Shown: positions 1,174-2,577 of the stretch, piece by piece | Position numbering within the stretch: position 1 is the stretch's first letter | Layout: every line of letters begins with the position of its first letter | NCBI RefSeq assembly: GCF_055900595.2 | Contig: NZ_CM148325.1 | Direction: 5' to 3' (one strand) | DNA length: 64,000 bases | Program-made: the position numbers and the translations under genes | Notes under the pieces: model-generated | What the model saw: only the letters and a program-made list of their open reading frames with translations | Database searches by the model: none | Told to the model about the DNA's origin: nothing

Positions 1174-2121
1174 ATGCGTGTGTTACTGGCACCGATGGAG
1201 GGTGTACTCGACTCTCTGGTGCGTGAATTGCTGACCGAAGTTAACGACTACGATCTGTGCATCACCGAGTTTGTCCGCGTGGTGGATCAACTGCTGCCGG
1301 TAAAAGTTTTTCATCGCATTTGCCCGGAGCTACAAAACGCCAGCCGAACGCCATCCGGTACGCTGGTGCGCGTGCAATTGCTGGGGCAGTTCCCACAATG
1401 GCTGGCAGAGAACGCCGCCCGTGCGGTGGAGTTAGGTTCCTGGGGTGTGGATCTTAATTGCGGCTGTCCGTCGAAAACGGTTAACGGTAGCGGCGGCGGG
1501 GCGACACTACTCAAAGATCCTGAACTCATCTACCAGGGTGCAAAAGCGATGCGTGAAGTTGTACCGGCGCATTTGCCCGTCAGTGTGAAAGTGCGTCTGG
1601 GCTGGGACAGCGGTGAGAAGAAATTTGAAATCGCCGATGCGGTTCAACAGGCTGGCGCTACGGAGTTGGTGGTGCATGGGCGGACAAAAGAGCAGGGGTA
1701 CCGCGCGGAGCATATTGACTGGCAGGCGATTGGCGAGATTCGCCAACGGCTGAATATTCCGGTGATTGCCAACGGTGAAATCTGGGACTGGCAGAGCGCG
1801 CAACAGTGTATGGCGATCAGCGGCTGTGACGCGGTGATGATTGGTCGCGGAGCGCTCAATATTCCCAATCTGAGCCGAGTGGTAAAATATAACGAACCGC
1901 GAATGCCGTGGCCGGAGGTGGTTGCTTTGCTACAAAAATATACCCGTCTGGAAAAGCAGGGCGATACTGGGTTATATCACGTTGCGCGGATTAAACAGTG
2001 GTTGAGTTATTTGCGTAAAGAATACGATGAAGCAACGGAATTATTTCAGCATGTTCGGGTGTTGAATAATTCCCTTGATATTGCAAGGGCTATTCAGACC
2101 ATTGATATCGAGAAACTCTAA
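1174..2121 (+). CDS. dusC: tRNA-dihydrouridine(16) synthase DusC
   Basis: 315 aa from [13 protein letters not shown]..., TIM-barrel Dus family; ORF-track start trimmed from 1123 to the conserved N-terminus. Confidence 0.9.
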
Positions 2122-2185
2122 GAAACCATAGTGATGTTTTTTGACAATGTGTTAGCTCTTTATCAATAGGCCGCACGGTTGTTTG

Positions 2186-2374
2186 GTGGCGTCAAAATCG
2201 CCGAGGCGTTCCCTGAAGGCCGGGGCAGCCCATATGGATGTGGGCTGAGGGCGCGTTTTACAGGGATGTTACCTCGCGCCCGACCCGGTAGCCGTAAGGG
2301 ATAAGCCGAGGGCACCGCGCAGCGGCGATTTTGTTCGCCAGAGCCCGGGGGTGCAGGGGGCGGCGGCGACTGGT
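2186..2374. repeat. GC-rich multi-hairpin intergenic element with terminal inverted repeats (unclassified)
   Basis: Ends ggcgtcaaaatcgccg (about 2187) and cggcgattttgttcgcc (about 2324) are near-perfect inverted repeats; internal perfect hairpins cagccca/tgggctg and gggcgcg/cgcgccc; additional hairpin gggggcg...cgccccc at about 2356-2384. No ORF. Confidence 0.3.
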
Positions 2375-2493
2375 CGCCCCCTGCGCGCTCCTTGCGCTAG
2401 TGATTATATGAAGCAATGCACATGACAGGAGCGCAACAGGATGAGAGACTGAAATATTCTCGTTATTTTCGGATCTGATGACGTTAATTAATT

Positions 2494-2577
2494 TTAAAAT
2501 ATCATCTTAAATACGCCAGTCACCACCAGTAGTCCAATCAGGAAAATAATCAATACAGCCCAGAGTATAATTTTCAT
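2494..2577 (-). CDS. yohP: Small membrane protein YohP (27 aa)
   Basis: Minus-strand ORF MKIILWAVLIIFLIGLLVVTGVFKMIF with an AAGGA RBS about 8 nt upstream; matches the K-12 small protein as I remember it. Below the ORF-track size cutoff. Confidence 0.6.
   Translation of the reverse strand: MKIILWAVLIIFLIGLLVVTGVFKMIF

Follow-up and report, generated by a model that had tools for sequence, protein, structure and literature searches.

What kind of element occupies the short region between dusC and yohP, and does it act through a transcript, as a mobile repeat or as DNA? Positions 2186-2384 of the window (the whole stretch of 64,000 nucleotides analysed here) contain 68% G+C, against 37-39% in the flanks, and the GC-rich block overall lies at 64-68%. 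An earlier note, made from the sequence alone, had placed about 200 bp of very GC-rich DNA here between two convergent genes, and both the composition and the placement stand. The upstream neighbour is dusC (1174..2121, + strand), which encodes tRNA-dihydrouridine(16) synthase according to its 316-aa translation and the annotation of homologous K-12/RefSeq loci, and its sense is that of the G-rich strand of the element. On the other side lies yohP (2494..2577, - strand), a gene for a 27-aa small membrane protein assigned from its translation (MKIILWAVLIIFLIGLLVVTGVFKMIF) and annotation, and mdtQ starts beyond it, at 2711.

The inner architecture largely follows the earlier description. Two perfect 7-bp hairpins (2226-2232/2241-2247 and 2249-2255/2275-2281), a short CCGC/GCGG hairpin (2315-2318/2322-2325) and, as the "further GC hairpin" of the earlier note, a perfect 10-bp hairpin (2353-2362/2375-2384) are all present. 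The inverted repeat of 16-17 bp that was thought to bound the element is also present (2193-2208/2318-2333; 16 nt, 14 of 16, or 88%, complementary, with an 11-bp perfect core, CAAAATCGCCG/CGGCGATTTTG), but it does not mark the ends. Homology between copies begins at about 2165 (with a weak signal from 2150), continues to about 2437-2447, well past the span first noted, and takes in an extra conserved hairpin (2386-2391/2428-2433) outside 2186-2384. The 16-nt inverted repeat is an internal closing helix and not the termini of the repeat unit.

The position between convergent genes would suit a transcription terminator or a cluster of mRNA-stabilizing hairpins serving dusC and yohP, and GC hairpins of such stability might hinder 3' exonucleases in the way known for REP/BIME elements. 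However, a scan of 1900-2800 for terminator-like sites (a GC hairpin followed by a T-run) returned 0 on either strand, so that the terminator role suggested in the earlier note is not supported. At other loci, moreover, the repeat lies upstream of genes and antisense to its neighbours, and 273 bp with 11 covarying helices go far beyond what a terminator needs. We consider this explanation highly improbable.

The DNA upstream of dusC differs from K-12, whose yohJ/yohK are missing at this place in the window. Positions 1-447 match BoxC and the 3' end of a gene for 3-hydroxybenzoate 6-monooxygenase, an arrangement shared with strain 148 (locus L015), and 448-1156 gave no match in four comparison loci (K-12-like, UPEC129, ATCC 11775 and strain 148).

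Identity with TRIP1c and RRS-dusC

The element is TRIP1c, which is also RRS-dusC; the original observation was real and concerned a sequence already known. TRIP1c was named by Rudd in 1999 and re-surveyed by Li et al. in 2024, who give it as a 273-bp repeat beginning 43-44 bp after the yohI/dusC stop (PMC10888264). In the window dusC ends at 2121 and homology begins at about 2165, which reproduces the published gap of 43-44 bp, and by this definition and by homology to the K-12 copies the full unit covers 2165..2437 (+). It has the same neighbours as the K-12 element (dusC and yohP/mdtQ) and is 98.2% identical to the K-12 dusC-yohP copy (NC_000913.3, 2229.1 kb) over 273 bp and 98.4% over 311 bp, compared with 93.2% for the K-12 lysO paralogue and 87.4% for the putP paralogue. 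Locus, 273-bp length class, 98% identity and paralogue set thus agree with TRIP1c (Rudd 1999; PMC10888264). What separates the window copy from that of K-12 is of strain level and nothing essential: a C-to-T change that produces a G.T wobble in hairpin 5 (2233/2240), and, in the loop and stem of the GC hairpin, GACTGGTC where K-12 has GATTGGCC.

The same DNA is the subject of the papers on "replication risk sequences" (RRS; Pham 2023, 2024; Kusi-Appauh 2026; PMC10287960; PMC11194060/PMC10592627; PMC13308219), so that the element has been named or studied since 1999 and again in 2023-2026. RRS-dusC and RRS-lysO are described as two 222-bp replication risk sequences (PMC11194060). The 222-bp "nearly perfect repeat" corresponds approximately to 2183..2402 (+), an extent that we took from the near-identity of the K-12 dusC and lysO copies in the alignment and not from coordinates given by the RRS authors (PMC11194060).

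The earlier note had allowed for an E. coli intergenic repeat family and proposed a BLAST search for further copies, and both proved apt. Among 5426 complete E. coli genomes searched by BLAST, 5425 carry the copy at this locus, and TRIP1 occupies between 1 and 10 places per genome (median 3). Paralogous sites are aqpZ-lysO, putP-efeU (often with a 125-bp internal deletion) and alx-sstT; in K-12 the partner copy lies at 914.9-915.3 kb, on the opposite strand, between aqpZ and lysO. The 150-bp RSA repeat was considered as an identity and set aside: K-12 has 6 RSA copies, whereas the element occupies 2-3 places there (3 by sensitive blastn, 2 by megablast), and the TRIP1/RRS papers settled the matter.

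The 125-bp deletion that defines TRIP1b (putP-efeU) is also found at aqpZ-lysO in some strains (L004 2486-2617, L007 2501-2639, L013 2856-2998). Its ends fall in a direct repeat, GGCCGGGG/GCCCGGGGG (window 2218-2225/2343-2351), which suggests recurrent slippage or recombination between short repeats.

Conservation of the fold

We examined whether the hairpins belong to a larger structure, as the earlier note had allowed when it offered an RNA closed by a long-range helix as one option. With RNA parameters, 2180-2400 (+) folds at -126.2 kcal/mol against -102.0 +/- 4.5 (z = -5.33), and 0 of 200 dinucleotide shuffles fold as well; the - strand reaches z = -3.3. With DNA parameters, 2165-2437 gives z = -4.9 (+) and -5.5 (-). 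Under the latter the two strands fold about equally, and thermodynamics is therefore uninformative on the strand concerned.

Pattern scans added 48 further loci from one-genome-per-species contigs and 120 from metagenomes, their source taxa being Escherichia spp., Pseudescherichia, Pseudocitrobacter, Kluyvera, Leclercia, Enterobacter and Klebsiella. Near-identical enterobacterial copies also turned up on short contigs labelled Desulfacinum MAG, Sporobacter MAG and Bacillus sp. (L017, L040, L057); contamination or mis-binning is the most likely source of these non-enterobacterial assembly copies. An alignment of 51 distinct copies yielded a consensus fold of 66 pairs in 11 helices. Standard pairs fill 99.0% of its cells in these copies, compared with 37-44% when the partners are slid by 1-3 columns, and the covariation score reaches 0.213 where the controls stay at or below 0.05; 0 of 500 shuffles reach the observed values. 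Both-side changes occur at 24 pairs, against 2-7 in the slid controls, and the pairs predicted from both strands hold 27 G.T but only 4 A.C wobbles, where the 51 copies are related sequences and neither pair-change nor wobble counts equal independent events. The structural covariation for which the earlier note had called is thus present. It extends to every helix that varies, including the long-range closing helix and the terminal hairpin.

All helices are given for the + strand. Helix 1, the long-range closing helix that contains the 16-nt inverted repeat, pairs 2187-2200 with 2326-2340 (12 pairs, 6 with both-side changes, 97.7% paired), and helix 2, stacked on it, pairs 2201-2213 with 2298-2311 (10 pairs, 3 compensatory, 99.4% paired). 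Helices 3 and 4 form the stem of the inner Y junction (2218-2224 with 2284-2293; 7 pairs) and are nearly invariant, hence uninformative for covariation. Hairpin 5 (CAGCCCATA/TGTGGGCTG, 2226..2247) has 4 compensatory pairs out of 8, with A-T replaced by G-C in 23 copies and GCGACGCGC/GCGCGGCG variants. Hairpins 6 and 7 (GGGCGCG...CGCGCCC plus an inner 2-bp stem, 2249..2281) comprise 8 pairs, 3 of them compensatory. The small hairpin 8 (CCGC GCA GCGG, 2315..2325; 4 pairs) has a single compensatory change, G-C to A-T, in 10 copies. Hairpins 9 and 10, which include the 10-bp GC hairpin GCAGGGGGCG/CGCCCCCTGC (2353..2384), have 11 pairs, 5 compensatory. Finally, hairpin 11 (GCGCTCC...GGAGCGC, 2386..2433), with a variable loop of about 35 nt, has 6 pairs and 2 compensatory changes: CC/GG becomes CT/AG, and the whole helix is swapped for ACGTTCAC/GTGAACG in Pseudescherichia and Leclercia.

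Counted on the pairs of the C-rich strand's own consensus fold, the wobbles number 29 G.T against 14 A.C. The asymmetry of the wobbles indicates that selection acts on the G-rich strand folded by itself, a state that fits single-stranded DNA and also RNA. From the pattern of substitutions we infer that the whole fold, and not just the G-runs, is probably the selected unit. The comparative evidence for selection on a complete one-strand, multi-helix fold across several enterobacterial genera is new here.

Covariation with a G.U-type asymmetry is a classic signature of RNA too, and the element might accordingly encode or belong to a structured RNA, either a module of the dusC 3'-UTR or an independent noncoding RNA, with the 11 helices as its RNA fold. 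Strong compensatory change, the wobble bias on one strand and the better RNA-parameter fold of the + strand are all what such an RNA would leave behind. The G strand of the window is the dusC sense strand and begins 43 nt past the stop; an intrinsic terminator is absent between dusC and the element, so that read-through from dusC would transcribe the G strand. Li et al. have also predicted a conserved "double-Y" RNA structure (PMC10888264). However, no Rfam family reaches threshold: in a scan at E <= 10 the best overlapping match was a microRNA model at chance level (16.9 bits, gathering score 70). Neither a conserved promoter-like site nor a terminator belonging to the unit was found, and its orientation relative to neighbouring genes is not fixed, the K-12 lysO copy being antisense to both neighbours and the dusC copy antisense to dusC in about 37% of genomes. 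Both strands fold equally with DNA parameters, as noted above. The G.T bias can also be explained by tolerance of mismatches in DNA, as G.T is the most tolerated mismatch in DNA hairpins, and the published effects of the element came from cloned DNA in M13 and a purified replication system. An RNA role therefore appears unlikely to us, and of the earlier suggestion the covarying long-range helix is the part that survives.

A sub-threshold Rfam match to AgvB (an anti-GcvB sRNA) was also seen at 2411-2471 on the - strand (22.9 bits, E = 0.079, gathering score 56). The match covers part of the spacer before yohP together with the 3' margin of the element and is probably due to chance.

The G-run motif and its hairpin

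The published "G4-forming sequence" of the RRS, GGGGGTGCAGGGGGCGGCGG (PMC10592627/PMC11194060), is matched exactly at 2347..2366 (+), with G-run 1 at 2347-2351 and G-run 2 at 2356-2360. It occurs once on the + strand of the 64-kb window and 0 times on the - strand, with 0 occurrences expected by chance in the window. A regular-expression scan of the element for the canonical motif, (G3+N1-7)x4, found none; the G-run motif consists of two G5 runs followed by GG and GG, and it may form a non-canonical or two-tetrad G4.

The second half of the motif is at the same time the 5' arm of the 10-bp hairpin 2353-2362/2375-2384, and this hairpin exists in at least 4 distinct compensatory states among the copies. 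GGCGG/CCGCC changes to GGAGG/CCTCC, or to GGTGG/CCACC in Pseudescherichia; GCA/TGC changes to ACA/TGT; and one Klebsiella lineage has GGGGGAGG/CCTCCCCC. Because the hairpin covaries, its C-rich arm must be constrained by pairing, which a G4 alone leaves unexplained. With the motif non-canonical and half of it in a covarying hairpin, a hairpin, a triplex and a G4 are all compatible with the data. The covariation of the hairpin that overlaps the proposed G4 is likewise new here; in the RRS papers searched, neither hairpins nor circular dichroism nor cation dependence is mentioned.

Both G-runs and the C-run have changed jointly, to GGGAG (run 1), GAGGG (run 2) and CCCTC, in one Klebsiella lineage represented by at least 8 distinct sequences. 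The changes lie at mirror positions and are always linked, as would be predicted by an antiparallel purine-motif triplex (A*A.T for G*G.C) or by a shared tetrad layer, although a triple substitution in a single lineage gives only a hint of either. A covariation in length among run 1, run 2 and the C-run, hinted at by four genome copies, was not upheld in 148 distinct copies. Many of the differences in run length amount to one homopolymer change each and could stem from errors of assembly.

Replication, orientation and dispersal

A role at the level of replicating DNA is not considered in the earlier note, yet it is here that the published evidence lies. In K-12, RecA/SSB-ssDNA peaks were found at lysO and dusC (PMC10287960), and the RRS papers place the two RRS about 650 kb on either side of dif, with the inverted partner on the other replichore. 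Pol I, II and IV halted in vitro at the G-run site on the G strand; Pol III-dependent M13 replication was about two-fold lower with the G strand; ectopic RRS copies generated new gaps; a double RRS deletion was obtained only alongside a 200-kb amplification; and psoralen mapping revealed altered supercoiling (PMC10592627/PMC11194060). In single-molecule experiments in vitro, nearly every encounter left a gap if the lagging-strand template was the G strand (PMC13308219). The GC skew of the + strand of the window is positive in 7 of 8 bins of 8 kb; the + strand therefore has leading-strand composition, and the + (G) strand would, as judged from composition, serve as lagging-strand template, as in K-12.

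The best explanation of the element, and in our judgement a probable one, is that it is an RRS that works at the DNA level by stalling polymerases and leaving lagging-strand gaps. By analogy we infer that the window copy would behave like that of K-12. It would then act as DNA and not as a gene. Unwinding by the replisome would expose the G-rich + strand as lagging-strand template, and the exposed strand would collapse into a very stable array of hairpins whose 3' module is G-rich; for this module the RRS authors propose a G-quadruplex. The lagging-strand polymerase would stall at this fold and restart downstream, so that up to about 2 kb would stay single-stranded and be covered by SSB and RecA. 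The RRS authors propose that such a transient gap near the boundary of the Ter macrodomain serves as a topological relief valve or swivel. RRS-dusC and its aqpZ-lysO partner are the two RRS on either side of the E. coli terminus region.

The natural variants do not all share this arrangement. When complete E. coli genomes were queried with flank plus element, the dusC locus was collinear with the window in 3317 of 5425 genomes, whereas in 1999 (about 37%) the element is inverted in place, in an allele that is 87.5% identical and has unrelated spacers. At lysO the K-12 arrangement is found in 4028 genomes; SCU-171 and E69 are among those with the inverse. The type strain ATCC 11775, in which one place of the element was found in the genome record, has a 45-kb region syntenic with the window and a + strand of positive GC skew (5 of 5 bins), but its G-run motif lies on the - strand, that is, on what composition suggests to be the leading-strand template. 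Among the seven genomes or lineages in which the orientation at both loci was compared (two of them resolved at one locus only), both loci are flipped in E. coli E69, dusC alone in E. whittamii and Escherichia sp. E1V33, and neither in K-12 and SCPM-O-B-8794; in some lineages the two copies are direct repeats of each other, or one copy alone is present. These variants indicate that an arrangement with the G strand on the lagging template at dusC and lysO alike holds for K-12 but is not conserved. Forward and reverse TRIP1 counts had already been tabulated by Li et al. (PMC10888264), and the orientation polymorphism is therefore only partly new. The published RRS model must nevertheless accommodate both orientations at one locus in natural populations, and the RRS authors report that inverted RRS still complement.

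Copy number raises a similar point. The repeat occupies 13 places in one K. pneumoniae chromosome and 5 in Klebsiella ATCC 13883, and at least 7 copies were found in one Enterobacter. Many dispersed or tandem copies in Klebsiella and Enterobacter fit poorly with a strictly Ter-flanking role. Taking orientation and the 3' hairpin together, one may tentatively ask whether it is the whole branched fold of the G strand that is selected, and not a G4, with G-run 1 docked on the 3' hairpin by triplex or lateral G-G contacts, and whether its role works in either orientation or as RNA and perhaps does not consist in lagging-strand gaps at the Ter boundary. We regard this joint reading as possible but doubtful.

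Dispersal of this kind could also mark a miniature mobile element (MITE-like or a mobilized repeat), whose structure would consist of transposition signals and whose effects on replication would be incidental. Besides the multiple places per genome, the alx-sstT site is polymorphic for presence (filled in 1669 of 5425 genomes), both orientations are found at the same locus, tandem copies exist in Klebsiella, and copies at different loci in different genera are 82-90% identical. However, the two ends of the unit (about 2150/2165 and 2437/2447) do not form an inverted repeat, and a comparison of filled and empty alleles at three loci (dusC, lysO and alx-sstT) revealed neither a duplicated flank, as a target-site duplication would leave, nor a clean empty site, the alternative alleles being unrelated spacer or other repeats. 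A partner transposase was not found either, and one strand's fold is under selection along the entire length. The MITE option of the earlier note, which took the internal inverted repeat for the ends, is thus not borne out, and we think mobility of this kind quite improbable as the explanation of the element.

Several observations were made on the surroundings of other copies. Two different copies in Kluyvera genomosp. 3 YDC799 (L042 723-2104, L043 ~1522-2904) are split at the same position, in the loop of hairpin 6/7 (equivalent to about 2266 in the window), by an insert of about 1.38 kb with an IS110-family transposase (PF01548, PF02371) and AT at both junctions; it looks like an IS110-type element that targets the repeat site-specifically. 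In Klebsiella, tandem direct copies lie a few hundred bp apart (L008 2064-2276 and 2501-2713; L070, 3 matches about 653 bp apart; L075), and on their 5' side the Klebsiella copies have about 40 bp of additional homology in common (GACCTACGG...GCCTGCCTTTAAT...), pointing to a larger composite repeat there. Genomes lacking TRIP1d at alx-sstT have one or two BoxC-like repeats there instead of an empty site (L064/L065 compared with L006), and this intergenic region has at least 3 unrelated alleles.

With the DNA-level RRS role as the preferred reading, the element matters as the first sequence described in bacteria as programming post-replication gaps, one that is conditionally essential in K-12 and affects supercoiling genome-wide. 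The window copy resembles the K-12 RRS in being the same DNA, with the exact G-run motif and with its G strand on what composition suggests is the lagging-strand template. The covarying multi-helix fold and the natural orientation variants, not analysed in the RRS papers, are analysed here.

Other repeats share some of these features. The window itself contains a BoxC/PIT/"TMECO" repeat of the kind in PMC4666352 (336-371, +, CCCTCGCCCCTTTGGGGAGAGGGTTAGGGTGAGGGG), whose G-rich half (349-371) is the sole canonical G4-type motif in the 64 kb. Repeats of this intrastrand-triplex family are likewise GC-rich and intergenic, with a hairpin and an extra G-run, and they stop polymerases in vitro and are associated with variable intergenic regions (PMC4666352). 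They differ from the RRS in their unrelated sequence, in length (36-56 bp against about 270 bp) and in strand order (C-G-G against G-G-C). REP/BIME and ERIC/IRU elements are also short, structured, intergenic and multi-copy, and BIME-2 elements are tied to topology as gyrase sites. However, no sequence relationship to the element was seen, their copies run to hundreds as opposed to 3-10, and TRIP1 is the longer repeat, with a branched fold.
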